From an uncultured Candidatus Saccharibacteria bacterium (GTDB taxonomy: Bacteria > Patescibacteriota > Minisyncoccia > Phycocordibacterales > CAYSCM01), in the NCBI GenBank assembly GCA_964429815.1, contig CAYSCM010000001.1:32001-96000 (forward strand): a stretch of DNA of 64,000 nt, written 5' to 3'. Numbering within the stretch: the stretch's first letter is position 1; each line of letters opens with the position of its first letter. The position numbers and the translations under genes are program-made. The notes under the pieces were generated by a model, which saw only the letters and a program-made list of their open reading frames with translations, did not search any database and was not told the DNA's origin. Positions 14,733-48,616 of this stretch are shown in pieces.

Positions 14733-14733
14733 G

Positions 14734-15231: not shown

Positions 15232-15233
15232 AG

Positions 15234-16238: not shown

Positions 16239-16249
16239 GTGAGCAAAGT

Positions 16250-17317
16250 TTAAAACGGACCGGTAAAACGCTTATCGGGCACATCGAGCGGCGTCGTGCG
16301 TTTCTTCTCTTCCGCTGCGACGAGCGACTCTAATTTTTTTGTATCCCCCTCAACCATAGAGACCACCATTCTGGCCATATCGATATAGCGCGGGTAGTAC
16401 TCATTGGCAAGCGCAGGCGTTGATGGGCTTGGCAGATCCGGCGCGGTAAGCCGGCGAGGGTTGGTCCGTAGACTGATTGTCGAATCCTCCGCGACTTGTG
16501 TGATTATCTCTCCCGCGACCCCGAAGCTGCGATGCCCGAGATCGGCCACAAGCAGCCGTCCTGTTTTTTTGACTGAGCGTGCTATTGTCTCGGTATCAAG
16601 AGGTTTAAGACTTCGCACATCGACGACCTCGGCGCTCACGCCAACCTTTTGGAGTAACTCCTGCGCACGCAGAGCCTCGTAGGTGAAGTAGGACGTTGTT
16701 ACAAGGGAAACATCGCTTCCCCGGCGCATTATACGAGCCTTGCCGATGGGCACCCTATAGTGACCCTCGGGAACATCTTCAGCAAGATCATGGAGCCATC
16801 GATGATCGATATATATGACCGGATTATCGTCCTCAATCGCGGCGAGCATCAGTCCCTTGGCATCGGAGGGGGTCGCGGGCATCACTACCTTGAGCCCGGG
16901 GATGTGCGCATAGAGGGCTTGGAGATTTTGTGAATGCTGCGGGCCCTGCCCCCATCCCATGCCGATGGTCATTTTCACCGTAAGGGGTACCGATTGCGCT
17001 CCGTTGTACATGTACGACCATTTCGCCGCATTGTTGATCACCTGCTCGATCGCAAGAAGGCTGAAGTCAACTCTCTGGTGCGTTAGGACTGGGCGCATCC
17101 CATTTACCGCCGCACCGATGCAGATCCCGGTTACCGCGAGCTCAGAAGTTGGCATATCAAGTACTCGTTTTGCGCCATGTTTTTTCTGAAGTCCCGTCGT
17201 CGTGCCAAAAATTCCCTTTGGATCAGGGACACCCAATCCTATAAGGAACACCGACTTGTCTTTAGCCAGAGCAAGATCAAATGCTTCTCGTATTGCTTGC
17301 GAATATGTTTTACGCAT
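16250..17317 (-). CDS. TPP-dependent 2-oxoacid dehydrogenase E1 component, beta subunit-like (transketolase-like pyrimidine-binding and C-terminal domains)
   Basis: MRKTYSQAIREAF...SVFLIGLGV...MPTSELAVTGICIGAAVNGMRPV is a canonical E1-beta N-terminus. The start is probably the ATG at 17317; the ORF track extends to 17401. It is coupled to the E1-alpha gene. Confidence 0.8.
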   Translation of the reverse strand: MRKTYSQAIREAFDLALAKDKSVFLIGLGVPDPKGIFGTTTGLQKKHGAKRVLDMPTSELAVTGICIGAAVNGMRPVLTHQRVDFSLLAIEQVINNAAKWSYMYNGAQSVPLTVKMTIGMGWGQGPQHSQNLQALYAHIPGLKVVMPATPSDAKGLMLAAIEDDNPVIYIDHRWLHDLAEDVPEGHYRVPIGKARIMRRGSDVSLVTTSYFTYEALRAQELLQKVGVSAEVVDVRSLKPLDTETIARSVKKTGRLLVADLGHRSFGVAGEIITQVAEDSTISLRTNPRRLTAPDLPSPSTPALANEYYPRYIDMARMVVSMVEGDTKKLESLVAAEEKKRTTPLDVPDKRFTGPF

Positions 17318-18269
17318 AGAGGTGTTCGGCAAGAGCTTCCCTCTTTGGAAACGGGCTCTTTTCGGCAAAACGGAATGCTCCATCAACCTGTCGAATCGCA
17401 TCGTTTCGGATTTTTTCGATGAGGTCGCTAGAAAGCACCTCTTTCTTCAGGAGCTCACGCTCGAACATCGCGACAGGATCCTTCTTCTTCCACACGGCAA
17501 CCTCCTTCGGATCACGGTACCCAAGCTCGTCATCAAAATTTGGGCCGCAGTGCTCACGGTAGCGGTAGGTCGAAAATTCCAAAAAAACTGGACCCGAACG
17601 GACGGCTTTTCTGGCTTTTGTTGCGGCAGCGAGAACGGTCGAAACATCGTTACCATCGTGGCGCGACGCAGGAATGCCGTGCCCTTTGGCAAGCGCGTAG
17701 ATGGGGCGTTTAGGTTGGCGCTCAGAGAGATGTGTGTACACCGAGAAGCGGTTATCTTCGCACACAAATACAATGGGTAGTTTGTGGAGCGCCGCAAAAT
17801 TGAGACTTTCATGGAAAGCCCCCTCCTCGACGGTACCATCCCCAAAAAACGAAACGATGACGCGGTTTTCCTTCCGGAGCTTCGCTGCAAACGCCGCTCC
17901 CGTTGCAATCGGAATGCTGTTGCCGACGATGGGTGTGGCCCCGCCAAAACCGGCCTTGAGATCAATGAGGTGCATGGAGCCGCCCTTGCCACCGCAGCAG
18001 CCCGTAGCTTTGCCATAGAGCTCAGCCATCATCGCATTGAGGTTGCCGCCTTTAGCGAGGTAATGAGCGTGACAGCGATGGGTACTATACACGAGATCCT
18101 CTGCCGTGAGCGCCGCGCACACCCCAACCGCAACGGCCTCTTGGCCGATCGAGAGGTGGACGGGACAGCGCATCTTTCCTTCGCTATAGCGACGAGCTAT
18201 CGTCTCTTCCGTCGTGCGTATGAGAATGAGCTTGCGGTAGAGCGATAGGAGTGCTTCATTTTTCTTCAT
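17310..18269 (-). CDS. TPP-dependent 2-oxoacid dehydrogenase E1 component, alpha subunit-like (pyruvate/acetoin dehydrogenase E1-alpha family)
   Basis: GDGTVEEGAFHESLNFAAL and MRCPVHLSIGQEA are the E1-alpha TPP-binding motifs. No E2 or E3 genes are nearby. Confidence 0.85.
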   Translation of the reverse strand: MKKNEALLSLYRKLILIRTTEETIARRYSEGKMRCPVHLSIGQEAVAVGVCAALTAEDLVYSTHRCHAHYLAKGGNLNAMMAELYGKATGCCGGKGGSMHLIDLKAGFGGATPIVGNSIPIATGAAFAAKLRKENRVIVSFFGDGTVEEGAFHESLNFAALHKLPIVFVCEDNRFSVYTHLSERQPKRPIYALAKGHGIPASRHDGNDVSTVLAAATKARKAVRSGPVFLEFSTYRYREHCGPNFDDELGYRDPKEVAVWKKKDPVAMFERELLKKEVLSSDLIEKIRNDAIRQVDGAFRFAEKSPFPKREALAEHLYA

Positions 18270-18270
18270 G

Positions 18271-19248
18271 CTACGTAAGCCCTAGCTTCTGCATCATCTT
18301 GACGTTGTGGTAGAGAGGATTGTTGAGACCGTCTGTTATGTCGCCCCGTTCGTATGCTGCCTTTATAGAGCGCACTGCCTCGGGGATATCAAACTGGGCC
18401 TTAAAGCCGAGTACACGCTCTATCTTGTCGGCATTGAGCTTGTAGGAGCGGTTATCGACGATCGAAGCCGATACCTTGATCGAAACTGCGGGGTCGTTGA
18501 GAACATCCTTGATGAGTTTCCCCGTATCGAGCACCGAAATATTCCAGAACCCGGTATTGAAGACTTCGCGATGAATTTTCTCCTGCGGAGCTGCGAGGAG
18601 CGTCTCGTAAATACGCACCATGTCGCGGATATTTATATGGGGTCGCAACTGGCTCCCGCCGAAGATGGTTATTTTCTTGTTTACGAGCGCATGCATGGTA
18701 AGTAAGTTCACGGTGAGGTCAAGTCGCAAACGCGTCGCGTAACCACACACCGTGCCCGGACGCACCGTCACGTAGTTGAGGTTGGTACCCTCAAGAACCT
18801 TTTCACACTCGAGCTTGTACTTGCCGTAATCCGTGATCGGCCTTCCCACCCTCTCCTCGGTCACTTCCCCCTCTTGGATACCATAGGTGCTCGCGGAGCT
18901 TGCGTAGATAAACCGACCGATGTCGTTTTCCTTCGCCGCATCGATGACGTTGAAGAACGCGTCGTAGTTGATCGATTTCCCGAGCGTTGGGTCGAGCTCG
19001 AAGCTCGGGTCGTTCGACACGCACGCAAGGTGAATGAGGGAATCGCAGCCTTTGGCCGACTCGATTAACTTTTTTCGGTCACGGATATCTCCCCGGATCT
19101 CAGTGAGGTTTTTCTGCTTGATGCCGGAAAAAACATCGCCGTAGAGATAGAGGTCGTACACAACGACGCTATGGCCCGCTTCGAGAAGTTTCGGAACGAG
19201 AGCGCTGCCGACGTATCCCGCTCCGCCTGTGATGAAGATCTTGGTCAT
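18271..19248 (-). CDS. NAD-dependent epimerase/dehydratase (extended SDR)
   Basis: The N-terminal motif is MTKIFITGGAGYVGS. YGKYK is the YxxxK motif. Confidence 0.75.
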   Translation of the reverse strand: MTKIFITGGAGYVGSALVPKLLEAGHSVVVYDLYLYGDVFSGIKQKNLTEIRGDIRDRKKLIESAKGCDSLIHLACVSNDPSFELDPTLGKSINYDAFFNVIDAAKENDIGRFIYASSASTYGIQEGEVTEERVGRPITDYGKYKLECEKVLEGTNLNYVTVRPGTVCGYATRLRLDLTVNLLTMHALVNKKITIFGGSQLRPHINIRDMVRIYETLLAAPQEKIHREVFNTGFWNISVLDTGKLIKDVLNDPAVSIKVSASIVDNRSYKLNADKIERVLGFKAQFDIPEAVRSIKAAYERGDITDGLNNPLYHNVKMMQKLGLT

Positions 19249-24774: not shown

Positions 24775-25362
24775 ATGCCGAAGTTCTTTCCTGCCCGCCC
24801 CGACCCGGAGCCGCCGGTCTTTTTCGAAGGCGGCGATGGCGTCCGCAAGGGATGGAGCCGGCCGTTCCTTGATGACGCTGAATACCTCACTGCCCTCAAC
24901 AAGCTCCTGATCGTCTGTTCGGACGTCTTATGGGTGAGGCCGGAATCGCAAGAGCTCTGGCTCACCTGGCGCAAGGTGCACAGCACGAAAGGCCCGTGGA
25001 TGTTCGGCGGGCGTCAGCTGCGCGGGGAAACGCCGCGCGAAGCGGCCGTGAGGAAACTCTCACGGGAGGTCGGTACCGACGTCGGGCCGGATGAACTCTC
25101 GTACCTGGCGACGCTCGTGTGGCTCTCCGAATTTCGTCAACAAGAACCCCAGGGCGCCGGCTGCCATTTCATCCTGTTCCACTACTGCTGGCAGCCACAG
25201 GACGAGCTGGTCGCTTCGAAGCAGGCAAAGCTCGACCCGGCCGAGTACGATCTCGAGCACGGCATCAAAGCCTACGGCTTGGCCGACATCGAAGCGCTCG
25301 ACGGGAAACTCTGGCCGCAACGCCAGCTTCTCATCGATCACTGGCGTCGCTGCTTCGGCTAG
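24775..25362 (+). CDS. Nudix hydrolase, GDP-mannose mannosyl hydrolase-like (Gmm/WcaH/NudD-like)
   Basis: GGRQLRGETPREAAVRKLSREVG is a degenerate Nudix box that closely parallels the E. coli Gmm box GGRVQKDETLEAAFERLTMAELG. The ORF has a good SD and is GC-rich. The ORF track starts earlier, at 24721. Confidence 0.6.
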   Translation: MPKFFPARPDPEPPVFFEGGDGVRKGWSRPFLDDAEYLTALNKLLIVCSDVLWVRPESQELWLTWRKVHSTKGPWMFGGRQLRGETPREAAVRKLSREVGTDVGPDELSYLATLVWLSEFRQQEPQGAGCHFILFHYCWQPQDELVASKQAKLDPAEYDLEHGIKAYGLADIEALDGKLWPQRQLLIDHWRRCFG

Positions 25363-25987: not shown

Positions 25988-26022
25988 GGCCGCACCCATA
26001 GGGTGCGGCCGATTTTTACTTT
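25988..26022 (+). terminator. Rho-independent terminator (copy 2, near-identical to 25386-25420)
   Basis: The stem cggccgcaccc-atag-gggtgcggcc is followed by gatttttac. It is the same 36-nt unit as copy 1, with 2 mismatches. Confidence 0.6.
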
Positions 26023-26996
26023 CCGGGATTTTTTTCGTACCAGGCGATTGTTTTTTTGAGGCCATCTCGTAGTGCCGTCACCGCTTCCCAGCCGGTATCG
26101 CGTTTTATTTTTGAGACGTCCGGAACACGTCGCTTCACGCTTCCCGTGGGACCTGGTTTGCGTTCAATAACGTTCGGCCTCCATCCGGCACGTTCGAACA
26201 AGACTTCGACGAGTTCCCCGATGTTAGTCTCGACGCTCGTACCGATATGATACGTCTCCCCGTCCGTTTTAGAACTTTCCATTACCGCCTGCATCGCCTC
26301 GACCGCATCATCAATGTAGCAAAATGAGCGCGTCTCATCGGCGCCGTAGAGGGCGAACGGATCTTCGCGTCGCTCGATGCGCCCCAACACATCGGGAATC
26401 ACGTGGTGGCCGGAGCGGGGTCCGTAGAAATTATGGGGGCGTACAACGACCGTGCGAAGTCCATACTGTTTTGCATAACTGTTGAAGAGTAGTTCTCCTA
26501 TCAACTTAGTACCGGCATACGACCACCGGGGATTACGAGGGTCAGCGATGACAAGCGGGACATTTTCAAGCGTAGGCAGCGGCAAGATGCCGAAGGCTTC
26601 AAGGGCACCGGCATATGCCTCGTTCGACGAGGTAAAAAGTATTTTTGACCCCTTCTTGTTCTTCTTAAACCACTCGAGCGCATGGACATTAAGAAGAAGG
26701 GCGGAGCGGAGAATTTCCGCAGGTATCTCATAAAAAAGCTTGGTCGAGTTAATGGCGGCTAGATGGTAGACGTCGTCAAAATCGAAGCCGAGCTTCTCCC
26801 AAGCTCTTGCTTGCGTGAGGTCGCACTGTAGGAACACAACTCCCCTCTCCTTAGTGAGAGCCCGGAACTCTTCGTCATGCTGCCCGAGCGCAAAGTTATC
26901 TACCAGGGTGAGCTCGTACCCAGCACCCTGTAATCGCTTAGCTAGGTGGTAGCCGACAAATCCTGCTGCCCCGGTTATCAAAACTCTTTTTGCCAT
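26016..26996 (-). CDS. NAD-dependent epimerase/dehydratase (extended SDR)
   Basis: MAKRVLITGAAGFVGYHLAKRL is the N-terminal motif, with the start at 26996 (cat at 26994-26996). YAGTK is the YxxxK motif. The longer ORF-track N-terminus has no support. Confidence 0.75.
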   Translation of the reverse strand: MAKRVLITGAAGFVGYHLAKRLQGAGYELTLVDNFALGQHDEEFRALTKERGVVFLQCDLTQARAWEKLGFDFDDVYHLAAINSTKLFYEIPAEILRSALLLNVHALEWFKKNKKGSKILFTSSNEAYAGALEAFGILPLPTLENVPLVIADPRNPRWSYAGTKLIGELLFNSYAKQYGLRTVVVRPHNFYGPRSGHHVIPDVLGRIERREDPFALYGADETRSFCYIDDAVEAMQAVMESSKTDGETYHIGTSVETNIGELVEVLFERAGWRPNVIERKPGPTGSVKRRVPDVSKIKRDTGWEAVTALRDGLKKTIAWYEKNPGK

Positions 26997-27907
26997 GATA
27001 GTCTTCGCTTTATCGCGATCCGAAGAGCCTTGAGCGCTTCCCGACCGGAAACGATCGGCCTTGGCCACTCCGAGAACCATTCAGGAAGGATAGGGAACCG
27101 CTTCTCCGCTCTGAGTTGCACGTTATTTGCCTTGATGGCTCCGCCGAGAAGTTCCATGCTCTTCCCCGCTCGGCCGTGCGCATAGAAAAAGGCGCGCATA
27201 TCTTTCGGCAGACAATGCCCGCCGAAGGCTTTGCCATAGCGGAGGTACGGCTTTCGTTCGAACAAAAAATTGACGACGTTCTCTATTTTGGAGAGCTCCT
27301 TTTGGCTGGTCGGGGTTCCCATCGCGTTACCGAATTCATTCACGAATGCGATACGCATGGCATTCCAGACATTCGACAAATATTTTATGTACGATGCTTC
27401 TTCGGGGGTGCCTGCGAAAGATTTCACCGAACGTTTACGCCACTCATCGAGAAAGCTCGGTTTCTTTTTCCCGGTGCGTGCGCCAACGACGAAGTAGTAC
27501 GGATTGAGGCATTCCTCTACCGCCTTCTTTTCGTGCAAAAATTCAGGAACATAGAAATCAAATGCGAGTTTATCCAGTGATTGTGGTATGACGGTAGAGC
27601 GTAGTATGACCGTCCCCTTCGCTCCCTTCAGGGTCTCAAGGGCTTTTTCTATCGGGGAAACATCCTGAATGCCTTCTTCGGATACGCGATCGCCCACACA
27701 GACCACGTACACGGTGTTCGGGCCATCGTGTTCACGTGCGTGCGAGAGAGAAGCGATTTCCGAGCATTCTTTCTGATATTTTGGGACGTATTTGAGCGAA
27801 GTCTCTGCCACGTCATAGCAAAAAACCGGATATCTCATGATCCGCAGCGAGATGGCATTTGCTTGGCCGACCCAACCGTATCCAACGATGACAATCGTCT
27901 CCTTCAT
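26978..27907 (-). CDS. UDP-glucose/GDP-mannose 6-dehydrogenase-family protein, short form (lacks the usual C-terminal UDP-binding domain)
   Basis: VGYGWVGQ is the N-terminal NAD-binding GxGxxG motif. GGHCLPKD is the catalytic Cys motif (GGxCxPKD). It is only 309 aa, whereas UGDH-family members are typically about 390-450 aa. Confidence 0.6.
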   Translation of the reverse strand: MKETIVIVGYGWVGQANAISLRIMRYPVFCYDVAETSLKYVPKYQKECSEIASLSHAREHDGPNTVYVVCVGDRVSEEGIQDVSPIEKALETLKGAKGTVILRSTVIPQSLDKLAFDFYVPEFLHEKKAVEECLNPYYFVVGARTGKKKPSFLDEWRKRSVKSFAGTPEEASYIKYLSNVWNAMRIAFVNEFGNAMGTPTSQKELSKIENVVNFLFERKPYLRYGKAFGGHCLPKDMRAFFYAHGRAGKSMELLGGAIKANNVQLRAEKRFPILPEWFSEWPRPIVSGREALKALRIAIKRRLSWQKEF

Positions 27908-27936: not shown

Positions 27937-29073
27937 TTAGGTAACGGCCCGAAGGGACTCGAGAATGAGGCGCGCCCGCGCTTCCCAGCTGTAGCGTTTC
28001 GCGAGTTCGCGAGCGACCCGACCTCGATCCACAAATTTGCCCCGAAGTCCTTCGAGCACCGTTTTCAAAAGAATTTCCCCATCGCCAGCGGGAACGAATG
28101 CCGCCTCCCGGTCGGAGAGAATTTCCCGCACCGAGGGAAGATCCGTCGTGACAATAGGAATTCCGCTCGCCATGTAGCTGAACATTTTAAGCGGTGACAT
28201 AAACTTGGCGTAGTGTTCCGTGTTTGGATAGTTCATGACGTGCACGTTGGCGGCTCGGAAATAACCGACCATGTCCTTTTGTGATGGAGTAGCATTAATA
28301 TGAAATTGACTATCTCGAAGACCGGCAGAGTGTGCCATATCGATCGCACGAGCCCTATCGACCTGCGACATACCAGCAAGAAGTAAATACGCGTTTGGTT
28401 CCTCATGGAGTAGTTTCGGAAACAGACGTATAAGCTCCTCGACGCCCTTGCCCCTTCCCATGGTGTGGAGTGCCCCTACATACCCGACCACCTTCGCTTC
28501 GGAGGGGATGCCGTTGCCCCGACGCCACACTCCTACATCAAACGGCTCACGGTAGGGTCGCACATCGACTCCATCGTGAGCTACCACGATCTTCCCAGGA
28601 TCCACCCCTTCGCTCTTCAGAAGCTCTGCGTGTGCTCCCGTGATGGCAACAATGAGCCGAGCACGTTGAAATAGAATTCGAGCGAATCGATTCAGTTTTT
28701 TGGTGTGAACTTCCCACACTACCCTCCCCGTTTTTGCGACAAGAGAAAGCGCCACCTCATCACGACCGTAGATGATATCCGCTCTCGAACTGCGAGCGTA
28801 GAGGTACGAAGCGAAAGCAAACGTTACCACCTGTACGAAAAAGCCAGCGCTCCCGAATCGCACGAGGTCGAGCGAGAAAAGCCTTACGATGCGAAACTGC
28901 GTGCGCACATCATAAAACTCAAACGGATCGACAGCAAGCCGACCGAAGCGCCACGGTACTGCGAGAATCACCTCATGGCCTTCACGGGCAAAGGCCTCGC
29001 ACATCTTCACGACCTGGAGGCCATGCGCCTTCTCGGTCGGCAGTCGGATGTTGGCGACGTAGAGGATTTTCAT
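27937..29073 (-). CDS. Glycosyltransferase family 4 (GT-B)
   Basis: The GT4 C-terminal domain pattern is present (YPNTEHYAKFMSPLKMFSYMASGIPIVTTDLPSVREIL). Confidence 0.75.
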   Translation of the reverse strand: MKILYVANIRLPTEKAHGLQVVKMCEAFAREGHEVILAVPWRFGRLAVDPFEFYDVRTQFRIVRLFSLDLVRFGSAGFFVQVVTFAFASYLYARSSRADIIYGRDEVALSLVAKTGRVVWEVHTKKLNRFARILFQRARLIVAITGAHAELLKSEGVDPGKIVVAHDGVDVRPYREPFDVGVWRRGNGIPSEAKVVGYVGALHTMGRGKGVEELIRLFPKLLHEEPNAYLLLAGMSQVDRARAIDMAHSAGLRDSQFHINATPSQKDMVGYFRAANVHVMNYPNTEHYAKFMSPLKMFSYMASGIPIVTTDLPSVREILSDREAAFVPAGDGEILLKTVLEGLRGKFVDRGRVARELAKRYSWEARARLILESLRAVT

Positions 29074-29876
29074 AGACTCCTGCGACGCTTATAGAGAAAA
29101 TTGAGCCAGCCGAACGCTAGGTTAAATGCGAGCTGCCGTGTCCACGAAAGATTCTCCTTCCAGGACTCATCGAGCTCTATTTTCTCACTCGCTTCCCCCT
29201 TCATACGGTTGCCACTTATTTGATGATGCGGAAAGGCCCGAAAAGAGAGCATGGCGGGTTCGTAGGAGAGGCCGACCGCTTCCAAGATGCGGGCGAGGGA
29301 TTCCTGCGGATGCGCAACAAGCTCCTCATAGCGCAAGAACAGGTAGCGCGCTTTGACCCTCCTGCGCAGAAGCTCGACTTTGGCGTTCATGAAAAACCAG
29401 CGCGAGAGCGAGAACCACACATGGGCTCCATATTTACGCAGATAGGATGAAAATACCCCGCGCCCGTCTCGCACTACGTGCACGATTACGGGGTCGGGGA
29501 GCGCCCGGCACATGAGTTCGGTATAGTCAGCGTTCTTTGATGAGTCGACAACGACCGAGGCCCCCTTGGTAGCGGCAGCCTTGGTATAGATGGTACGGAC
29601 ACGTTCTCGGTACTGCGCGATGTCGACCGCCTTCCCTGTCTTGGCGTAACGATAATTTTTTGAGCCGAATAGAAAACCGCTTTTGCTTCGGGCTACGTCA
29701 AAGAGTTCCCCTTTCGGGAGAATGTCCCGCCAAAAAGGGTCACTGGTGGGGTCCGAATCCTCCGAGACGAGCTCGCCGATGCCGATGACTTTCGAATGTG
29801 AGTCGAGAAGAAGGTCCAGGAGTGTTGAGCCACTGTGCCCACTTCCGAGGATAAAGAGTACTTGGGGGATTCGCAT
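29070..29876 (-). CDS. Sulfotransferase family protein (second, P-loop GSGxSGST type)
   Basis: FILGSGHSGSTLL is a PAPS 5'-phosphate-binding loop. VHVVRDGRGVFSS is a 3'-PB-like RDxRxxxxS motif. The start is probably the ATG at 29876 (MRIPQVLFILG); the ORF track extends to 29924. Confidence 0.65.
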   Translation of the reverse strand: MRIPQVLFILGSGHSGSTLLDLLLDSHSKVIGIGELVSEDSDPTSDPFWRDILPKGELFDVARSKSGFLFGSKNYRYAKTGKAVDIAQYRERVRTIYTKAAATKGASVVVDSSKNADYTELMCRALPDPVIVHVVRDGRGVFSSYLRKYGAHVWFSLSRWFFMNAKVELLRRRVKARYLFLRYEELVAHPQESLARILEAVGLSYEPAMLSFRAFPHHQISGNRMKGEASEKIELDESWKENLSWTRQLAFNLAFGWLNFLYKRRRSL

Positions 29877-29938
29877 GAGAGTGAGTGTTACACGTAAACT
29901 AAATCGACATCGGGAAAGTTGCAATGAGGAGCCTGCGT

Positions 29939-29974: not shown

Positions 29975-31243
29975 ATGGACGACCGGGAACGTAGGGTGTG
30001 CCGTATATCCGGCGAGCCTCTCACCGAACTTTTCACACTCGGCGAACTTTACATTTCCGATTTCATCCCGCGAGAGGGAAAGCCCCGTATGAAAAACAAG
30101 GTTGAACTTAAGCTTATGCTTGCACCAAAATCCGGTTTGGTACAGCTCGCGCACACCGCCCCTTTCGATGAGATGTACGGCGAGTATTGGTACCGCTCGG
30201 GCACCAATGAGACCATGCGTCGGGAGCTTAAGGACATCGCAGATTCCGCTTCAAGACTTATGCGACTTGCGAAGGGAGACGTGGTAATTGACATCGGCTG
30301 TAATGACGGGACGCTTTTGAGTTTCCTGGGCACCGAGGTCGTCCGCATAGGCTTTGACCCCGCACGCGGAGACTATCCCGAGCTTGCAAAAAAACATGCA
30401 GACCTTGTCGTGACCGACTACTTCACCTGCGCTGCGTTCAAAAAATCGAGCTTTGGCAAGCAAAGGGCTAAGGTTATCACATCGATCGCGATGTTTTATG
30501 ACCTCGAGAAGCCCGATGAGTTCGTTGCGGATATTGCCGAGGCTCTCGACGATGAAGGACTTTGGATAATACAGATGAGCTACACTCCGCTCATGCTCAA
30601 GCAGTTGGCCTTTGACAACATCTGCCACGAGCACCTTGAGTACTATACGCTCCATTCGCTCCAGTACCTCCTCGCGAAGCATGGGCTCAAGGTCGTTGAC
30701 TGTCAGCTCAATGACGTCAATGGAGGGAGTTTCAGGATCTATATCCGCAAGGAGAAAGCTACTCCCGCCACATTTGCGACCGCGCCATACCGTTATGTAG
30801 CGCAATTCCGGGTCGATTCCATACTCGCGTATGAGAAAACCCTCAACCTAACCGACCCGAAGACCTACCTCGACTTTTTCGAACACGCGAAACGATTGAA
30901 AAAAGAAACCGTCGACTTTATCGTATCCGAAAAGAAAAAGGGTAAGAAGATCTGGGCGTATGGGGCCTCCACCAAGGGCAATACACTCCTGCAGTGGTTC
31001 GGTCTCAATGAGACCCACATCGACGGCATAGCGGAGCGCTCTCCGGCAAAGTTCGGGCTCAAGACAGTGGGCAGTAATATCCCAATTTATTCAGAAGAGG
31101 AGATGCGGGCCGCAAAGCCCGATTACCTTTTGGTCCTGCCGTGGCACTTTATCGAAGAGTTCGTGCGGCGAGAACAGGCGTTCCTCAACGGCGGCGGGAA
31201 ATTCATAGTTCCCTGCCCGAAGTTCGAAATAGTTGGCGCCTAG
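29975..31243 (+). CDS. NDP-sugar C-methyltransferase (TylCIII/NovU-like: zinc-ribbon N-terminus, class I methyltransferase core, C-methyltransferase C-terminal domain)
   Basis: CRISGEPLTELFTLGELYISDF is the putative Zn-binding N-terminal domain of sugar C3-methyltransferases. VIDIGCNDG is motif I. It is about 420 aa, the typical size for the family. Confidence 0.7.
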   Translation: MDDRERRVCRISGEPLTELFTLGELYISDFIPREGKPRMKNKVELKLMLAPKSGLVQLAHTAPFDEMYGEYWYRSGTNETMRRELKDIADSASRLMRLAKGDVVIDIGCNDGTLLSFLGTEVVRIGFDPARGDYPELAKKHADLVVTDYFTCAAFKKSSFGKQRAKVITSIAMFYDLEKPDEFVADIAEALDDEGLWIIQMSYTPLMLKQLAFDNICHEHLEYYTLHSLQYLLAKHGLKVVDCQLNDVNGGSFRIYIRKEKATPATFATAPYRYVAQFRVDSILAYEKTLNLTDPKTYLDFFEHAKRLKKETVDFIVSEKKKGKKIWAYGASTKGNTLLQWFGLNETHIDGIAERSPAKFGLKTVGSNIPIYSEEEMRAAKPDYLLVLPWHFIEEFVRREQAFLNGGGKFIVPCPKFEIVGA

Positions 31244-31246: not shown

Positions 31247-32251
31247 TTATTCCCTCCTCTGAGCCGCCTCTACCATTTCTTCGACTAGTTCCTTGAAGGA
31301 AATCTTTGGCTCCCATTCGAGCTCCTCAGCAATTTTTGCGTTGTCTCCACGGCGCGGATACATTTCCGCAGGGCGATAGAACTCGCTCGCCACGCGCACA
31401 CGCACAGTACCGGACGGGTCCACTCCGACCTCATATTGCCCTTCCGCTTTCCACGCGATATCCATACCAAGACGTTTCGCAGCTATTTCGATAAACTCCC
31501 GTACGGTATGGGCCCTGCCAGAGGCTATGACGTAGGACTCCGCCCTATCGTGCTGCAGGGTCTTCCAAACGGCTTGGACGACGTCTCTGGCGTGTGACCA
31601 ATCGCGCCTCACATCGAGATTCCCTATCCGCAACTCCTGCTCTTTCCCCAGAGAAATGCGCGCGAGCGTCGTCGCTATTTTTTGGGTCACGAATTCCCTT
31701 CCACGACGAGGACTCTCGTGATTAAAAAGAATTCCAGACACGGAAAAAATATGGTGGTCACGCCGATATGCCTCGATAAGGTTATGCGCAGCTGTTTTTC
31801 CGACGCCGTAGGGGTTGCAGGGCCGAAAGGGCGTATTCTCATTTTGCGGGCTTTCTGACGCTTCGCCGTACATTTCTGCCGATGATGCTTGGAACAGTCT
31901 CGATCCAGGCAAAAATTCTCGCATCGCCTCGAGGATAGTGAGGGGAACGAACGCAGTGCTCTCAAGGGTTTTGCGCGGGTTCTCCCAGGGGTTTGCCACC
32001 GTGCTCACCGAGGCAAGATTATATATTTCATCGGGACAGACGACTTTGAGCTGTTCGCGTAAAAAGTGAGAGTCGGTCACATCCCCTGCGGAGAGCGCGA
32101 CCCCGGTAACGTCTTTAAGATTTTCCTTCGTCGAACCTGCGCGTTCAATGCCGAACACCCGATATCCCTTTTGAAGCAAAAGTTCGGCCAAGTAGGAACC
32201 GTCTTGGCCGCCGATCCCCGTGATAAGGGCTGTTGTTGCCTTCTCTCTCAT
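31247..32251 (-). CDS. gmd: GDP-mannose 4,6-dehydratase
   Basis: ALITGIGGQDGSYLAELLL and GILFNHESPRRG are GMD signatures. Confidence 0.85.
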   Translation of the reverse strand: MREKATTALITGIGGQDGSYLAELLLQKGYRVFGIERAGSTKENLKDVTGVALSAGDVTDSHFLREQLKVVCPDEIYNLASVSTVANPWENPRKTLESTAFVPLTILEAMREFLPGSRLFQASSAEMYGEASESPQNENTPFRPCNPYGVGKTAAHNLIEAYRRDHHIFSVSGILFNHESPRRGREFVTQKIATTLARISLGKEQELRIGNLDVRRDWSHARDVVQAVWKTLQHDRAESYVIASGRAHTVREFIEIAAKRLGMDIAWKAEGQYEVGVDPSGTVRVRVASEFYRPAEMYPRRGDNAKIAEELEWEPKISFKELVEEMVEAAQRRE

Positions 32252-33283
32252 CTATTCATCTCCCCCCTTCTTATGGCCCGCGATAAGTCGTAGGTCCGAT
32301 TCAACCATCATCTCTACGAGATCTTGAAACGATACCTTCGGCTTCCACCCCAATTCCCGCAGGGCTTTGGTGGAATCGCCCTCAAGAGCCTCAACCTCCT
32401 GTGGTCGGAAGAAGCGCGAATTGACTTCGATGATACATTTTCCGTGCTGATCGTATCCCTTTTCTTCGAGTCCCTTCCCCCTCCACGTAATGTCGATCCC
32501 AAGCGCATGACACACCGCTGCGACAAGATCTCTCACGGTGTGGGACTTTCCTGTGGCGATAACATAATTCGAGGGTCGCGCAGGCTGGAGCATCATCCAC
32601 ATCGCCTCGACGTAATCTCCCGCAAAGCCCCAATCGCGTTTGGCCCCAAGGTTCCCTAGCCTTACTTTTTCCTGAAGTCCAAGTTTGATTTTCACCAATG
32701 AGTGGGTAAGTTTGCGTGTCACGAAGTGCTTGCCGCGGCGAGGACTTTCATGGTTGAACAATATTCCGGAGACAGCGTACTTACCTTCTTTTTGCCAGGC
32801 ACTCACAAGCTCATGTGAATGCAGTTTCGAGACCGCATACGGGCTTACTGGCTGAAATGGGCTCGCCTCGCTCTGCGGTGGCGGGGTGCTGCCGAACATT
32901 TCGCTAGTCGAAGCCTGATACACTTTCACTTTCGGGTTGCGACGGAATGCTTCAGTGCCAAGGCGTTCGAGGCCTTTGAAGTTTATATCGTCGGTCTCAT
33001 CGGGACAGAGAAACGAAACACCGACATGCGATTGTGCCGCAAGATTGTAGATCTCATCAGGTTTGGCTTCCTCAAGCGCTCGCACGATGGTCGGCATGTC
33101 GCGCATATTCCCATACATGAGATCGATCTCACCCTTGATATAGAGATCCTCTATCCGCACGAAAGGGTCCGTGCTGGTGCGGCGCATAAATCCGAATACT
33201 CGGTACCCTTTTCGTATCAGAAGCTCAGCCAGGTAGGAACCGTCCTGCCCCGTGATGCCTGTTATAAGAGCCCGTTTTTGCAT
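32252..33283 (-). CDS. GDP-mannose 4,6-dehydratase, second tandem paralog (possibly GDP-heptose- or GDP-mannose-specific)
   Basis: ALITGITGQDGSYLAELLI and GILFNHESPRRG are GMD signatures. It is immediately adjacent to the first gmd, with 1 nt between them. Confidence 0.85.
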   Translation of the reverse strand: MQKRALITGITGQDGSYLAELLIRKGYRVFGFMRRTSTDPFVRIEDLYIKGEIDLMYGNMRDMPTIVRALEEAKPDEIYNLAAQSHVGVSFLCPDETDDINFKGLERLGTEAFRRNPKVKVYQASTSEMFGSTPPPQSEASPFQPVSPYAVSKLHSHELVSAWQKEGKYAVSGILFNHESPRRGKHFVTRKLTHSLVKIKLGLQEKVRLGNLGAKRDWGFAGDYVEAMWMMLQPARPSNYVIATGKSHTVRDLVAAVCHALGIDITWRGKGLEEKGYDQHGKCIIEVNSRFFRPQEVEALEGDSTKALRELGWKPKVSFQDLVEMMVESDLRLIAGHKKGGDE

Positions 33284-39620: not shown

Positions 39621-40829
39621 TCAGCGCGAAAGGAGCGGCATAAATACCCTTTCGCGCATACCGGCAGCGACGAGGCTCCAGTCATATTTTTCAAACACGA
39701 GCTTGCGAGCATACTTGACGACTCCCGAGACCTTCTCGGGACCGGCAAGAATATCTTCGACCGCCGCGACGATATCGCTCGGAGAGTCTTTATCGACGGC
39801 CCACCCGGTGGTCGGTTTGTCGGGGTTTCGTTTCGCATCAAACAGGAAGTCCGCAATGCCCCCTTCCTGGGTCCCAATGACGGGAATTCCTGCTGCCATA
39901 GCTTCGATGAATGAATTTCCCATGCCCTCCGAGCGGCTCGGGCGGATGAAAATATCGCACGCTTTGAGATACTTCGGCATCTCGTCATGAGAGAGCTGGC
40001 CGAGGAATTTCACCCGCCTCTCGACCCCAAGCTCCCGCGCAAGGGCCTTTAGTTTTATCTCGTCGGGCCCGACGCCAAAGACGACGAAATGGACACTCTG
40101 TGGAAGGCCGCGCTGTGCGCGTATGACGTCGTCGACAGCGTTTTTGTGGACAAGCCGGGAAGTCGTCACCAGAAAAACATCGCCCTCTTTCTTGCCGAGG
40201 AGCGTCTTCACCGTTTCCATCTCCTCGGGCGGATAGGAGGCCGAGAAACGTTTGGTATCAACGGCGTTCGGGATGATTTCAAGGCGCCCCTTGAAACCTC
40301 GTCGGCGCGCCCAGGAGCCTAAGAACGTGGAGATCGCTTGGATAGTGTCGGCCGTCGTGAAGGCGCGAGAAAAAAGTGGCCATACCGGGCGAGCCAGGCG
40401 TTCGATATGCTCCGGTGGATCACCTTCTTGGAGGGTGAGAATAAACGGGACCTTGGGGTGGAACCACTTGAAAAGCGCCGCGGGGATGCCACATGAGTGC
40501 GCCATCATTGCCCAGATAGCATCGAAGTGATACCTCCGGTGAAGCGAGAGGGCCTTCCAGGCCGCAAGAAACTGAAAGAGATGCTTATTGTAGTGGAGGG
40601 GAAATCGCTTAAGGTCTGCCATCGTGGGGTTCGGACGCGCAGGCCCAATGCGATGGACATACACATTTCCTATTTTTTCTTCCTTGGGAAGGGAGGAGTC
40701 GAATCTCAGGCACACCATGTGAAGTTCAATTTCAGATGTAGCAATGCGATCAGTAATTTCTTTGATAGCCACCTCTGCCCCGCCCACGTGCGGGTAATAG
40801 GTCAGGGAAAAAATGAGTATTCGTTTCAT
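39621..40829 (-). CDS. Glycosyltransferase family 4
   Basis: SEGMGNSFIEAMAAGIPVIGTQEGG is the GT4 motif. The likely start is MKRILIFS at 40829, overlapping the upstream stop; the ORF track extends to 40880. Confidence 0.7.
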   Translation of the reverse strand: MKRILIFSLTYYPHVGGAEVAIKEITDRIATSEIELHMVCLRFDSSLPKEEKIGNVYVHRIGPARPNPTMADLKRFPLHYNKHLFQFLAAWKALSLHRRYHFDAIWAMMAHSCGIPAALFKWFHPKVPFILTLQEGDPPEHIERLARPVWPLFSRAFTTADTIQAISTFLGSWARRRGFKGRLEIIPNAVDTKRFSASYPPEEMETVKTLLGKKEGDVFLVTTSRLVHKNAVDDVIRAQRGLPQSVHFVVFGVGPDEIKLKALARELGVERRVKFLGQLSHDEMPKYLKACDIFIRPSRSEGMGNSFIEAMAAGIPVIGTQEGGIADFLFDAKRNPDKPTTGWAVDKDSPSDIVAAVEDILAGPEKVSGVVKYARKLVFEKYDWSLVAAGMRERVFMPLLSR

Positions 40830-41689
40830 GTGCGCCGCGCTTCCTTGATGTATTCCTCGACGGACTTGGTTATCTTCCACCCGATGGATTCCGACCTACT
40901 GGTATCGATCGCGGAGCTCATACGATTCCCTGCACGCTCGGGAAGCATTTTAATTTCAGTGCCAAACAGTTTCGCAATGTCGAGGATGGAATATTCACGC
41001 ACATCCCCCAAACCATAGTCATCGCCCTCCCCCCTTTCCCCAACAATCACAAGTCCCTCGACAATGTCGTGCACGTGGGTAAAGTTGCGTTTTTGGGTGC
41101 CGGGAGACACGACCGTAAGGGGTTCCCCCGCAAGATATTTTTGTCGGAAGATTTCTATGACCGTACCGTACGCCCCCGCACGTTCACGCGGCCCATACAC
41201 GTTGTAAAAATAGGTGATCGCGTACGGGACGCCAAACCACACGCCGTAGTTATGAACCAGGTCCGTATTGCTTGCCTTACACCACGCATAGGGGCTCTGG
41301 TGCCTCCCAAGCCCATCATCAGCAAATTTTGTGGACGATCCGGCGTAGACGAGTTTTGATCCACGGTTTCGACAGAACTCCACCACCCCAAATGTTCCAA
41401 GTACATTGAGGTCCCATACCAGTGAAGGCTCGTCAAAGCTCTTTTCGACACGGGAATACTCCCCGAGGTGATATACAACATCAGGTTTCTCCGGTATGTG
41501 CGTGTCGATATCTTTGGTATGCCCCTCGCGATAGGTGACTCCAGGGACGTGATTTTCCCTCGAGCCGGTGAAATAGTTATCGAGGGATATGACCTTATGC
41601 CCATCTTTCGCGAGACGTTCACATAAGTGTGAGCCTATGAAACCGGCTCCGCCGGTCACTAGGATGAGTTTTTGTATAGCCAAAGCCAT
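40826..41689 (-). CDS. NAD-dependent epimerase/dehydratase, UDP-glucuronate decarboxylase (UXS)-like
   Basis: ILVTGGAGFIGSHLCERL and LDNYFTGSREN parallel the UXS DNFFTG motif. YAWCK is the YxxxK motif. It is 287 aa. Confidence 0.7.
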   Translation of the reverse strand: MALAIQKLILVTGGAGFIGSHLCERLAKDGHKVISLDNYFTGSRENHVPGVTYREGHTKDIDTHIPEKPDVVYHLGEYSRVEKSFDEPSLVWDLNVLGTFGVVEFCRNRGSKLVYAGSSTKFADDGLGRHQSPYAWCKASNTDLVHNYGVWFGVPYAITYFYNVYGPRERAGAYGTVIEIFRQKYLAGEPLTVVSPGTQKRNFTHVHDIVEGLVIVGERGEGDDYGLGDVREYSILDIAKLFGTEIKMLPERAGNRMSSAIDTSRSESIGWKITKSVEEYIKEARRT

Positions 41690-41718: not shown

Positions 41719-42498
41719 TTATTCAATGATCTCGTACTCGGCCGCTTCGGCTGACACTGAAATGCTCGAGTCGTGTTTTCGGCGCGCAAGGTATACAGCG
41801 CCTGCGCCGAGCGCTAGCACGGTGCCGAGCGCGAGCCACCACAGGTACGGGGAGTGTTGTTCCTCCCCAGTAGCCACGAACCCCGGCTTCGGGGTCAGTG
41901 CGCTCTCTACAACGCCCGGGGGTGGCTCGAGGTTGGCGGGCTTTCGCGACGCTTTTTGTGTAATCACATTTGGGGAAGAAGGAGCGGTTTTTGCTGTCGG
42001 GATATCGGCTTGCGCGAGTGCCCGACCTGGAGAAGGTTTCGCGGCGATGAAGCCTCCGAGGGTGCGTGAGAGCGAAAGTCCGTCCCCTGCCGCGCCAAGC
42101 GCGTGTGTGTACGTGACCGAATCGAGCGTCGAGCTTCCGCTCAAAAGCGCGATTGTTTCGCCGGTATTCGAGAGCGAAAACGAGCTATCAAAAAGCGCCC
42201 CGGTGTAAGATGGGTTGTCGGCCAAAAATTTCGCCGGATCGGCGGCGATGACCGCATACACCCCCGAAGCCAGAACAGACGTACCGGACGCTTTGAGAGT
42301 GTGTCTGACTCCACCCTCGAGCAGCCTGAGGGTCGTAAGGTCGACGGGTCCGCCTCCCCCGTTGTATACCTCGATCCACTCGCGGCCATCATCGGCACCA
42401 GGGAGGTCATAGAGCACCTCGCTGATAGAGACCTGCGCGAAAAGCGGTAGTGGAGCGACGAGGAGCCCGATAAGCGCGCTAGTTCGAGTCATCAGCAA
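41719..42498 (-). CDS. Lamin-tail-domain (LTD) protein with signal peptide and C-terminal membrane anchor
   Basis: ISEVLYDLPGADDGREWIEVYNGGGGPVDL is the LTD signature. There is an N-terminal signal-like hydrophobic segment. The C-terminal WWLALGTVLALGAGAVYLARRK is a transmembrane segment. Confidence 0.65.
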   Translation of the reverse strand: MLMTRTSALIGLLVAPLPLFAQVSISEVLYDLPGADDGREWIEVYNGGGGPVDLTTLRLLEGGVRHTLKASGTSVLASGVYAVIAADPAKFLADNPSYTGALFDSSFSLSNTGETIALLSGSSTLDSVTYTHALGAAGDGLSLSRTLGGFIAAKPSPGRALAQADIPTAKTAPSSPNVITQKASRKPANLEPPPGVVESALTPKPGFVATGEEQHSPYLWWLALGTVLALGAGAVYLARRKHDSSISVSAEAAEYEIIE

Positions 42499-44260
42499 GC
42501 ATTTTTCGAAGCTCTTCGGGTGAGGGTTCGCCCGTATGCTGTTGTGTCGGAGTCGCTTCGTTGGTCAATTCTTTCGATGATTCCCCCTTTCGTTCCTCCT
42601 GGGCTCGAGCGCGCTCAGCCATAGCCTTTGCGAGTGCATCGCGCAGTGCATTGTTTTGTTTCGGAGTCTCCGGCTGCGCCTGCTCCCTTTTATCTTTCTT
42701 TTCGAGCTCTTTCCCGGCCACCTGGCGTAGCGTCTCGCGAAGTTTCGCAAGATGGTCTCCTGTCGACTGCTGCGGGCGAGAAGATATCTGTGAAGGAACT
42801 CCCGTGGAAGGAGGAGGTGCTCTTCTCTCCTCACGGCGGGTATCAGCTCCGCGCTCAGGGCGCGCTTCAGCATTACGATGTTCGCGGGGACGAGATCCCC
42901 CGTTGCGGTCTCGGGAGGAAACGCCCGCTCCGGCAGGAGCCGTCGATGGTCGCAGGGGTTCCACCGGTTCATGCCACTTGGCAATATCCCGCTCGACATC
43001 AGCACGTGGGCGAGCAAATTGCTGGCGCGACATCGCAAGGATTTCTTGCTTAAAGGAGCGCGTGGGTGCCTCAATTGGCGGAAGAGTTACGGCAGAAAAG
43101 GGCGGCGAGCCGACGCCGTCGATCATGAGTGAGAGGTATATCTGGCGAAGACCAAGGTTGACGATATCCTCTGCAGTAAATTTTGGCGCAAAAACTTTCT
43201 CCAGGAGCTCCGCATCGAGTGGACCCACTCGAAAGGCGATAGTGGTGCCAACGTTGCCAAACACCGCATCGCGCACCTCCTCTTCCATTTGTTCCACATA
43301 TTGATGTGCGATGGTGAGGGAGAGCCTATATTTGCGGGCCTCGGCAAGAATATCCGCAAAGGATGCATTCGCAAACGACTGAAACTCGTCTACGTAAAAA
43401 TAGAGACTGGGGAGTTTGGCCTGTGTTGCGGCGGAAGTATCTGCGCGGCTCATGGCGGCCAAATAGATGCGCGTGGTGAGCATAGAACCAAGAAGTGCTG
43501 TGTTTGTCTCCCCCACTAAGCCCTTGGAGAGATTCATGATGATGATTTTTTTCTCATCCATCAATTTACGCAAGTCAAAAGAAGATTTGGACTGTCCGAT
43601 GATGTTGCGAATAAGGGGGTTGGAGCTGTACTGCCCCACCTTGTTCTGAATTGCAGGGGTTGCTTCTGCTGCGAAGCGCTCAGTGTACTTGGCAAATTCA
43701 TTGACCCAAAACGCTTTCACTGATGGGTCGGAAATGTTAGCGACAACTCGATCTCGATAGGGTTTATCCGAGAGCATGCGGTTCACCGCAAGGAGCGTTG
43801 TGTCTGGATATTCCAAAAGTGCCAAGAGTGTATTGGTAAGGATGTATTCCATGCGGGCGCTCCAGGTGTCTGGGCCCCACACTTTTTTAAAGGCACTCAT
43901 AAGTCCCGAGGCGACGAAGTGTCTTCGCGCTGGACCCACATCTTCCATCACGTTGAAGGCCACCGGGTAGTCGGTATCAAACGGCGCGAAATAGAGCACG
44001 TCTTTCACACGCTCGGCCGGAATATAGTCGAGAAGTTTTTCAGCCGTGCCACCGTGCGGATCGATAAAGGCAAGTCCCTCACCATTCATAATGTCCTGGA
44101 TGGCCATGTTCTCGAGAAGAGTCGACTTACCCATGCCCGTTTTACCGATGACATAGACGTGCCGTGAGCGGTCTTTGGCTTTGATGCCAAAGGGGGTGCG
44201 CTTGCCGCGTGAGTCGGTAACAGCAAAATACGTTATCCTCTCGTCGGGATTCATCTTCAT
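42479..44260 (-). CDS. P-loop ATPase, type IV secretion coupling-protein-like (VirD4/TraD/TrwB-type DNA-binding domain) with long low-complexity charged C-terminal tail
   Basis: YVIGKTGMGKST is Walker A. AFIDPHGG is a DPxG motif. The N-terminal MKMNPDERITYFAVTD..RGKR.PFGIK resembles CPR/Gram-positive T4SS coupling proteins. The C-terminal 150 aa are R/E/P-rich. The start is taken as 44260; the ORF track extends to 44305. Confidence 0.6.
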   Translation of the reverse strand: MKMNPDERITYFAVTDSRGKRTPFGIKAKDRSRHVYVIGKTGMGKSTLLENMAIQDIMNGEGLAFIDPHGGTAEKLLDYIPAERVKDVLYFAPFDTDYPVAFNVMEDVGPARRHFVASGLMSAFKKVWGPDTWSARMEYILTNTLLALLEYPDTTLLAVNRMLSDKPYRDRVVANISDPSVKAFWVNEFAKYTERFAAEATPAIQNKVGQYSSNPLIRNIIGQSKSSFDLRKLMDEKKIIIMNLSKGLVGETNTALLGSMLTTRIYLAAMSRADTSAATQAKLPSLYFYVDEFQSFANASFADILAEARKYRLSLTIAHQYVEQMEEEVRDAVFGNVGTTIAFRVGPLDAELLEKVFAPKFTAEDIVNLGLRQIYLSLMIDGVGSPPFSAVTLPPIEAPTRSFKQEILAMSRQQFARPRADVERDIAKWHEPVEPLRPSTAPAGAGVSSRDRNGGSRPREHRNAEARPERGADTRREERRAPPPSTGVPSQISSRPQQSTGDHLAKLRETLRQVAGKELEKKDKREQAQPETPKQNNALRDALAKAMAERARAQEERKGESSKELTNEATPTQQHTGEPSPEELRKMLADDSN

Positions 44261-44261
44261 G

Positions 44262-44267
44262 AGTATA
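44262..44267 (-). promoter_or_regulatory. Candidate -10 box (TATACT) abutting the ATG of the VirD4-like gene (possible leaderless mRNA)
   Basis: The minus-strand sequence reads TTGCAT-20nt-TATACT-C-ATG. The spacer is long for a sigma70 promoter, so only the -10 element is called. Confidence 0.25.
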
Positions 44268-44288
44268 GCAATTTTGCCGCCATCGCGA

Positions 44289-44318
44289 TGCAAAAAGCCC
44301 CGCACTCTTTTGCGGGGC
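44289..44318 (-). terminator. Rho-independent terminator after the small gene at 44339-44554
   Basis: The minus-strand hairpin gccccgcaaaagagtgcggggc is followed by tttttg. Confidence 0.5.
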
Positions 44319-48282: not shown

Positions 48283-48310
48283 TTCCCGATACTACTTTAT
48301 TTTACTGAGG

Positions 48311-48392
48311 TGGGCGAGGGGAGAGTTGAACTCCCAATCCTTGCGGAATACGCTTCTGAGGCGTACGTGTATACCAATTCCACCACTCGCCC
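48311..48392 (-). tRNA. tRNA-Leu (anticodon CAG), type II with long variable arm
   Basis: The reverse complement folds as a cloverleaf. The acceptor stem is GGGCGAG/CTCGCCC. The anticodon stem TACGC/GCGTA carries the loop CTCAGAA. The variable arm is TTCCGCAAGGAT, the T-arm is GGGAG-TTCAACT-CTCCC, and the discriminator is A. Confidence 0.8.
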
Positions 48393-48544
48393 GTCTGTTC
48401 CATCCTACTCAAATATGAAAACGGGTCTAGCCGACATCAGACCGCGTGGGTCTCATTTAAAGGCGCCATCAATCCGATTTAAGCCTTCGACACACTGTTC
48501 TGTCAGCCGACTGGCGAGGGGCGGAAAAGCTGTACCGTCCTGTG

Positions 48545-48616
48545 TGCGAGTGGAAGGAATCGAACCTTCGACCTCTGTCTTATCAGGACAGCGTTCTACC
48601 ACTGAACTACACTCGC
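48545..48616 (-). tRNA. tRNA-Ile (anticodon GAT)
   Basis: The reverse complement reads GCGAGTGTAGTTCAGTGGTAGAACGCTGTCCTGATAAGACAGAGGTCGAAGGTTCGATTCCTTCCACTCGCA. It has a perfect 7-bp acceptor stem, the anticodon loop CTGATAA and the T-loop GGTTCGATTCC. Confidence 0.85.

Follow-up and report, generated by a model that had tools for sequence, protein, structure and literature searches.

GDP-mannose 4,6-dehydratases (GMDs), such as E. coli Gmd (1DB3) and the Aquifex (2Z1M) and human (6GPJ) enzymes, carry the fingerprint [ST]SE..Yx3K (PMC8987622), and GxxRR and the RR loop have been counted among their hallmarks (PMC3584063). Some GMDs, including those of P. aeruginosa and A. thermoaerophilus, also reduce their own 4-keto product to GDP-D-rhamnose, showing that a GMD active site is capable of 4-keto reduction (PMC3584063). 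In the mithramycin pathway, a C-methylated 4-keto sugar requires a separate 4-ketoreductase, MtmTIII (PMC10269268). For the virenose of Coxiella burnetii, a route has been proposed that leads from GDP-mannose via a GMD (CBU0689) and a TylCIII-like methyltransferase (CBU0691) to a reductase, proposed to be an Fcl-type epimerase/reductase (CBU0688) (PMC3539893), while 3-C-methyl-D-rhamnose (evalose) is known from a few bacterial O-antigens (PMC7203242). Here, we analyse a stretch of 64,000 nucleotides (the window) from an uncultured Candidatus Saccharibacteria bacterium (assembly GCA_964429815.1, contig CAYSCM010000001.1, positions 32,001 to 96,000 of the forward strand), in which two GMD-family genes, gmdA and gmdB, lie in tandem next to a gene for a sugar 3-C-methyltransferase.

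We propose, giving the idea an even chance, that gmdA, the methyltransferase gene and gmdB form a conserved module that converts GDP-mannose to a GDP-6-deoxy-3-C-methyl-hexose. GmdA would dehydrate GDP-mannose to GDP-4-keto-6-deoxymannose, the TylCIII/MtmC-type enzyme would methylate C3 of this 4-keto sugar with S-adenosylmethionine (SAM), and GmdB would finally reduce the 4-keto group with NADPH, thus taking the role of an RMD-type reductase without belonging to the RMD family. The simplest predicted product is GDP-3-C-methyl-D-rhamnose (D-evalose), destined for a surface glycan of the tiny source bacterium, a Paceibacteria/Kaiserbacteria-like member of the Patescibacteria (candidate phyla radiation). 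Family membership and gene linkage argue for the first two steps, while gene context and motif changes in GmdB point to the third. The closest analogy is the proposed GDP route to Coxiella virenose, in which a GMD and a TylCIII-type methylation are likewise followed by reduction. There, however, an Fcl-type enzyme is proposed for the last step, whereas the window module lacks Fcl and has a GMD paralogue instead; both routes are proposals only. Compared with the bifunctional GMDs, which unite both activities in one protein, the two activities here are apparently divided between two paralogues. We are dealing here with a known type of pathway in a variant that is widespread but uncharacterised, and with a likely case of neofunctionalisation; the literature searched contained no description of a GmdB-type paralogue subfamily or of the module.

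Both genes lie on the minus strand, gmdA at 32252-33283 (1032 bp, 343 aa) and gmdB at 31247-32251 (1005 bp, 334 aa), and both coordinates were verified. An earlier note on this DNA had described two full-length GMD-family genes here, which holds: PF16363 (GDP_Man_Dehyd) matches both proteins end to end (383 bits for GmdA, 361 bits for GmdB). It had also placed them 1 nt apart; they are indeed adjacent, but the gap is 0 nt, as the gmdA stop codon TAG (32252-32254) is directly followed by the gmdB start codon ATG (32249-32251). Within the 3′ end of gmdA, a Shine-Dalgarno-like purine-rich run, GGGGGGAG (32255-32268, minus strand), is located 8-15 nt upstream of the gmdB ATG. Together, the abutting stop and start codons and this internal run suggest that gmdA and gmdB are translationally coupled. 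The pair sits at the end of a long, tightly packed minus-strand operon, extending from about 44.3 to 31.2 kb, whose other genes encode several GT4 glycosyltransferases, an AsnB-type amidotransferase and one further glycosyltransferase. At the head of this operon (41719-44305, minus strand) are genes for a lamin-tail-domain protein and a homologue of TraG/VirD4-like coupling ATPases.

GmdA and GmdB share 45% identity over 332 residues and match proven GDP-mannose dehydratases at 292-367 bits and 41-46% identity, the best PDB match of GmdA being the Aquifex enzyme (2z1m, 367 bits). With the TIGR01472 'gmd' model, whose curated equivalog cut-off is 415 bits, both proteins score below threshold (GmdA 394.8 bits, GmdB 333.5 bits). 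The fold, the length, the NADP-binding glycine motif, the Tyr-x3-Lys motif and the GDP-binding motifs of 1DB3, 2Z1M and 6GPJ are common to both window proteins. GmdA additionally has the TSE and GxxRR motifs of these enzymes. Both the published fingerprint, [ST]-S-E...Y-x3-K, and the GxxRR and RR-loop hallmarks are present in it (T126-S127-E128, Y149/K153 and G31-F-M-R-R35, with a loop of 26 residues), and its motifs, its clade and the two profile matches mark it as a canonical-type GMD. GmdB, by contrast, differs from the known GMDs by its S-A-E motif, in which Ala replaces the middle Ser of [ST]-S-E, by a Tyr-to-Phe exchange four residues upstream, by the absence of GxxRR, by a short loop and by its downstream position in tandem pairs. 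Its key residues are F120, S124-A125-E126, Y148/K152 and G34-I-E-R-A38, with a loop of 21 residues. Here and below, the roles of individual GMD residues are taken from reviews and general knowledge.

These differences are not peculiar to the window. In a search of 5.8 billion proteins, no relative of GmdB exceeded 57% identity, and the nearest ones are metagenomic, many of them from Patescibacteria. In an alignment of 299 GMD-family proteins (search matches, 80 ordinary GMD genome loci, 80 loci from metagenomes and the E. coli enzyme), GmdB groups with about 100 sequences that share its signature, which we term the 'F..S-A-E' subfamily. GmdA falls into a clade of eight upstream tandem partners with a neighbour-joining (NJ) bootstrap of 99/100 that excludes GmdB. 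On this sequence evidence, the two copies go back to an ancient divergence rather than a recent duplication. Thus, the statement in the earlier note that the copies are clearly diverged is borne out, and the outcome it had named as fatal to its interpretation, a single recent duplication clade with identical pocket residues, is not what we find, since active-site positions differ between GmdA and GmdB.

When 100 subfamily members were compared with 160 canonical GMDs (E. coli numbering), position 129 was Phe in all 100 of the former and Tyr in 158 of the latter. Position 133 is always Ser in the subfamily and either Thr or Ser in canonical GMDs. At position 134, Ala occupies 92% of the subfamily but only 1% of the canonical GMDs, 159 of which have Ser. 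GxxRR is found in 15% of the subfamily as opposed to 94% of canonical GMDs, and the loop that follows it, 24-35 residues long in the latter, is shortened in the former to a minimum of two residues. Not one of the 100 members departs from the catalytic Ser, Tyr and Lys, and the subfamily likewise shows no variation in the glycine motif for NADP or in the NHESPRR/FVT.K/RP motifs that bind GDP. It is this combination of dehydratase descent, a preserved Ser-Tyr-Lys triad with preserved GDP-binding residues, and lost dehydratase-specific features that leads us to read GmdB as a predicted GDP-4-keto-6-deoxyhexose 4-reductase.

The same invariance bears on the idea that GmdB forms a hetero-oligomer with GmdA, in which its role would be regulatory or at any rate not catalytic. 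The abutting genes with their internal Shine-Dalgarno run suggest equimolar co-translation, and GmdB lacks the RR loop that builds the tetramer interface of GMDs. However, invariant cofactor-binding, catalytic and GDP-binding motifs are not what would be expected of a pseudoenzyme, and no GMD-GMD′ fusion proteins (GMD′ denoting the GmdB-type partner) exist in the representative protein library, making this idea improbable. Long GMD matches in this library had been considered as such 'Rosetta stone' fusions, but were rejected because they are GMDs with insertions of ~340-380 aa at the NHES site. These homologues of 625-740 aa (P0280, P0313, P0324, P0329, P0330, P0341, P0371 and P0380) carry their insertions at the conserved GILFNHES sequence, and the insertions look intein-like.

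Gene order provides a second line of evidence. A metagenome scan with the subfamily-specific peptides FQASSAEM and EIYNLAS[VI][AS] yielded tandem pairs that, without exception, have TSE in the upstream gene and S-A-E or a variant thereof in the downstream gene (32 upstream and 30 downstream genes, none mixed). Once near-duplicates had been removed, 29 F..SA-signature genes were left that had 1.1 kb or more of DNA on their upstream side. For 21 of these, a canonical Y..TSE GMD gene is located immediately upstream on the same strand, and for a further three it is found elsewhere on the contig. A profile scan of genome contigs using the full-length subfamily alignment was swamped by ordinary GMDs, none of them above 49% identity, and returned neither the source genome of the window nor any subfamily members, so that its output was used as a background set only. 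Several module loci have a DUF6165 protein gene or a small open reading frame (ORF) of ~130 aa just 3′ of the GMD′ gene (L002, 9909-10295; L164, 7885-8979; small ORFs in L085, L086, L088 and L093); nothing comparable was recognised in the window.

The fixed order is relevant to the most conservative explanation, namely that GmdB is what its annotation says, a second, diverged GDP-mannose 4,6-dehydratase that is redundant or differently regulated. It fits the full-length PF16363 match, the 41-46% identity to solved GMDs, the presence of Glu126, Tyr148 and Lys152, the name 'GDP-mannose 4,6-dehydratase' given to relatives in the source databases and the fact that some members of the subfamily occur singly on their contigs. 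Nevertheless, redundancy leaves unexplained why the gene order is fixed across many lineages and why Tyr-to-Phe and Ser-to-Ala changes beside the catalytic residues are systematic and accompanied by loss of GxxRR. Nor does it account for a gene that has lost the catalytic Glu and is nevertheless kept under purifying selection. This applies to the lineage closest to GmdB (L083, L088, L089 and P0004-7), in which the dehydration Glu is replaced by Ala while the protein is still a full-length tandem partner with a dN/dS of 0.11-0.16, indicative of purifying selection. Moreover, a second dehydratase would leave the module without any 4-ketoreductase. We therefore regard this explanation as unlikely, though it deserves to be kept in mind. 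Glu mutants of GMD serve as inactive variants, and the human E157Q structure was among those compared here.

The Glu residue itself invites another interpretation, in which GmdB is a C5 (or C3) epimerase-reductase that employs the Glu as a base, giving an L-series or gulo/talo 3-C-methyl-6-deoxyhexose similar to virenose. In GMD, this Glu removes the proton from C5, and 93% of the subfamily have retained it; virenose-type sugars, in turn, require epimerisation plus reduction (PMC3539893). In three loci, a homologue of GDP-fucose synthase is encoded directly upstream of the GMD-GMD′ pair (L117, 233-3086; L151, 153-3072; L157, 5765-8684), meaning that the product of GMD′ must differ from fucose there; a single dehydratase may feed two different finishing enzymes in these cases. 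Yet there is no precedent for epimerisation on a GMD scaffold, members without the Glu persist in the same module, and no second acid/base residue was identified in GmdB. Altogether, epimerisation seems rather improbable to us. More distant GMD-GMD′ pairs come without the methyltransferase, and some of them lie beside a GDP-fucose-synthase homologue. A third short-chain dehydrogenase/reductase (SDR) encoded 3′ of some distant pairs (L104-type loci) was considered as a reductase but rejected, as it is an RmlB dTDP-glucose dehydratase.

Support for the proposed module comes from the neighbour of the pair. The gene at 29975-31243 (plus strand) is convergent with gmdB, with the two stop codons 3 nt apart, and encodes a TylCIII/TcaB9/MtmC-type sugar 3-C-methyltransferase assembled from PF08421 (a weak match), PF13489 and PF08484. 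The protein has the three-domain architecture of the solved 3-C-methyltransferases and resembles them over its full length, with MtmC (4rv9, 1.8e-46, residues 40-420), TcaB9 (~1e-32, residues 8-418) and KijD1 as PDB matches, and its sequence contains VIDIGCNDG as the SAM motif and also the HEH motif. Its N-terminal 'zinc-binding' domain (29975-30180, plus strand) contains a single cysteine, C9, so the zinc site of the TcaB9 type has apparently been lost. A further difference is that the known TylCIII, TcaB9, KijD1 and MtmC enzymes act on dTDP-sugars in antibiotic pathways, whereas the window gene is tied to GDP-sugar genes. Orthologues with 63-73% identity are located 0-3 kb from a GMD-GMD′ pair in at least 13 loci (L002, L083, L086, L087, L090-L093, L095, L118 and L164-L166). 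This linkage includes three Patescibacteria contigs that were looked up independently, and the closest relatives are mostly from Patescibacteria. By comparison, only four of the 80 ordinary GMD loci contain any relative of the methyltransferase, at 30-44% identity. One locus of uncultured Gammaproteobacteria (L053, 261-10945) combines an RMD-GMD pair with a 44% identical C-methyltransferase and looks like the 'classical reductase' version of the same pathway. In a Parcubacteria locus (L004, 7519-10996), genes for a C-methyltransferase, a Gmm-like Nudix enzyme and a GMD are found in a row.

What the module lacks is a conventional reductase. No RMD or GDP-fucose synthase (Fcl) is encoded in the window, whose other SDRs are UXS/GalE/RmlB-like, and both are likewise absent from all module loci of the window's type, even though one or the other is adjacent in ~36-40 of the 80 ordinary gmd loci. 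Two candidates, the SDR at 26016-27080 and the SDR at 40826-41689 (287 aa), a homologue of which lies close to the L118 module at 74% identity, were rejected because they are UXS/GalE-like and not RMD or Fcl. Given that a usable donor requires C4 reduction, GmdB would fill the slot of the missing reductase. In this regard, GmdB resembles RMD in its predicted job, the NADPH-dependent 4-keto reduction of the GMD product, in its position beside gmd and in the absence of the RR loop, which is also missing from the RMD sequences we read. The match to the RMD structure 2pk3 is higher for GmdB than for GmdA (128 versus 92 bits), but true RMDs of other loci share 36-51% identity with 2pk3, as compared with 29% for GmdB. 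At ~27-29% identity to RMDs, GmdB is an independent and far more recent offshoot of GMD, and thus an analogue of RMD, not a member of the family.

Several observations weigh against a reductase. By sequence, GmdB sides with the dehydratases and does not fall into the RMD family (292 bits to GMD versus 128 bits to 2pk3). Its AlphaFold2 model (pLDDT 95.7) adopts the GMD fold with TM-scores of 0.92-0.94 to GMD structures, and it is closer to GMD than to RMD (0.94 versus 0.84), although the fold comparison does not discriminate between dehydratase and reductase. The window's GmdB retains Glu126, like 93% of the subfamily, and may therefore still have dehydratase activity. As the RMD of A. thermoaerophilus carries S-S-E, the middle Ser is not a clean discriminator between the two activities. 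With regard to the subfamily as a whole, the Glu-to-Ala cases all belong to one lineage, whose members are 88-91% identical; for five of the 29 subfamily genes, the contig contains no canonical GMD; and the NJ bootstrap gives no firm support for monophyly, with 67/100 for a core of 62 sequences and 9/100 for the full 73. Finally, the configuration assigned to the product above is tentative.

In the earlier note, a different substrate had been suggested, with one copy possibly acting as a GDP-D-glycero-D-manno-heptose 4,6-dehydratase of the DmhA/WcbK type and heptose genes lying in the same supercluster. GDP-heptose dehydratases with a GMD fold do exist (7us5), and the window contains a gmhA-like SIS gene (6296-6931; 94.8 bits, cut-off 209) as well as an rfaE-domain-II-like nucleotidyltransferase gene (14734-15231; 112 bits, cut-off 181.5). 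Hence, heptose-like genes are present, but they score below the family cut-offs, are of the ADP/CDP type and belong to a different sub-cluster 16-25 kb away; an HddA-type (GHMP) kinase, GmhB or an HddC-type guanylyltransferase was not found among the window ORFs in Pfam scans. The enzyme 7us5, the only solved GDP-heptose 4,6-dehydratase, matches GmdA at 80 bits, fails to match GmdB at 1e-20 and shows 24% structural identity, placing both copies far nearer to proven GMDs. In addition, the conserved companion of the pair in other loci is a gene for a hexose 3-C-methyltransferase rather than heptose genes. A heptose substrate is therefore very hard to reconcile with the data, and we consider this suggestion highly improbable. 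The sub-cluster in question (5391-19248) encodes a sulfotransferase, the gmhA-like SIS protein, a zinc-dependent alcohol dehydrogenase, methyltransferases, an acetolactate-synthase-like thiamine-pyrophosphate enzyme, a flippase, the rfaE-domain-II-like nucleotidyltransferase, an RmlB/CDP-glucose-dehydratase-like SDR and a split transketolase. This gene content points to a pathway for a branched sugar, or for one with a longer carbon chain, that has no connection with the GMD pair.

The earlier note had further drawn attention to a Gmm-like Nudix gene, located at 24775-25362 (plus strand). Its 195-aa product matches PF00293 at 39 bits and has a degenerate Nudix box, GGRQLRGETPREAAVRKLSREVGT, which lacks the same two REUXEE glutamates as the box of E. 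coli Gmm (RLTMAELGL), as is evident when the two are aligned (RKLSREVG in the window, RLTMAELG in Gmm). This part of the observation stands, yet kinship with Gmm emerges only from a profile with intermediates and not from a curated model or a direct match. Single-sequence searches returned generic Nudix models only, with no Gmm family match in NCBIfam (E ≤ 0.01) and no Gmm chain in the PDB (E ≤ 1), and the pairwise E-value against E. coli Gmm was 0.004. Homologues of the Nudix protein adjoin a GMD or C-methyltransferase gene in four other loci (L004, L091, L008 and L084), where E. coli Gmm matches the respective ORFs at 1e-13 to 1e-4. With a profile built from the window protein and three homologues from other GMD loci, the Gmm structures 2gt4 and 1rya rank first (3e-16 to 9e-16, next match 9e-12), a result that leans on the intermediates from L004 and L008, which are themselves nearer to Gmm. 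The protein is thus plausibly a divergent Gmm-like enzyme and a remote relative of Gmm/NudD/WcaH (1RYA), with which it shares the fold, the loss of the two glutamates and the linkage to gmd. It differs from Gmm in its strong divergence, a 30-residue N-terminal extension and a catalytic His that was not identified. In the module, it would probably act as an accessory enzyme that trims the pool of GDP-mannose or another GDP-sugar.

Other features of the window concern its glycan clusters and ribosomal RNA (rRNA) genes. Two sulfotransferase genes lie within glycan clusters, one at 5391-6299 (minus strand) and a second one, adjoining the C-methyltransferase gene, at 29070-29924 (minus strand), a hint that the surface glycans of this Patescibacteria bacterium may be sulfated. 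In the region 26016-27907 (minus strand), an ORF for a nucleotide-sugar dehydrogenase is only 309 aa long; its N-terminal and central domains are recognised, whereas no match to the C-terminal domain was obtained. It overlaps the start of a UXS-like SDR ORF by ~100 nt, so that the gene may be split or truncated or its start may have been called wrongly. The origin of the window from a Patescibacteria genome is also reflected in its RodA, which shares 63-69% identity with proteins named Candidatus Kaiserbacteria, Paceibacterota or Parcubacteria, and in its unlinked rRNA genes. The latter all lie on the minus strand and their order is unusual, with the 23S gene at 61464-64000 (cut by the window end), the 5S gene at 60916-61021 and the 16S gene at 50519-51980. 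Between 5S and 16S are ~9 kb of protein genes (RodA, a glycosyltransferase, a sugar transferase, an SDR and SecDF), and genes for tRNA-Ile and tRNA-Leu (48309-48616) follow after 16S.

Taken as a family, the 'F..S-A-E' GMD paralogues may, with slightly less than even confidence on our part, be an uncharacterised subfamily in which a sugar 4,6-dehydratase became the 4-ketoreductase, or epimerase-reductase, that completes the pathway it once only began, and which, together with a GDP-specific 3-C-methyltransferase, constitutes the missing route to 3-C-methyl-6-deoxyhexoses of the evalose/virenose type, widespread in cell-surface glycan clusters of Patescibacteria. If true, hundreds of genes annotated as GDP-mannose 4,6-dehydratase would be mislabelled, and the pair would illustrate how a dehydratase became a reductase inside one operon. 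To our knowledge, the biosynthesis of evalose, found in rhizobial and Burkholderia O-antigens, and of Coxiella virenose has not been demonstrated so far, and the module would provide candidate enzymes for such rare, branched GDP-linked 3-C-methyl-6-deoxy sugars. Uncultivated Patescibacteria depend on attachment to a host, and the module would offer a testable handle on their surface glycans.

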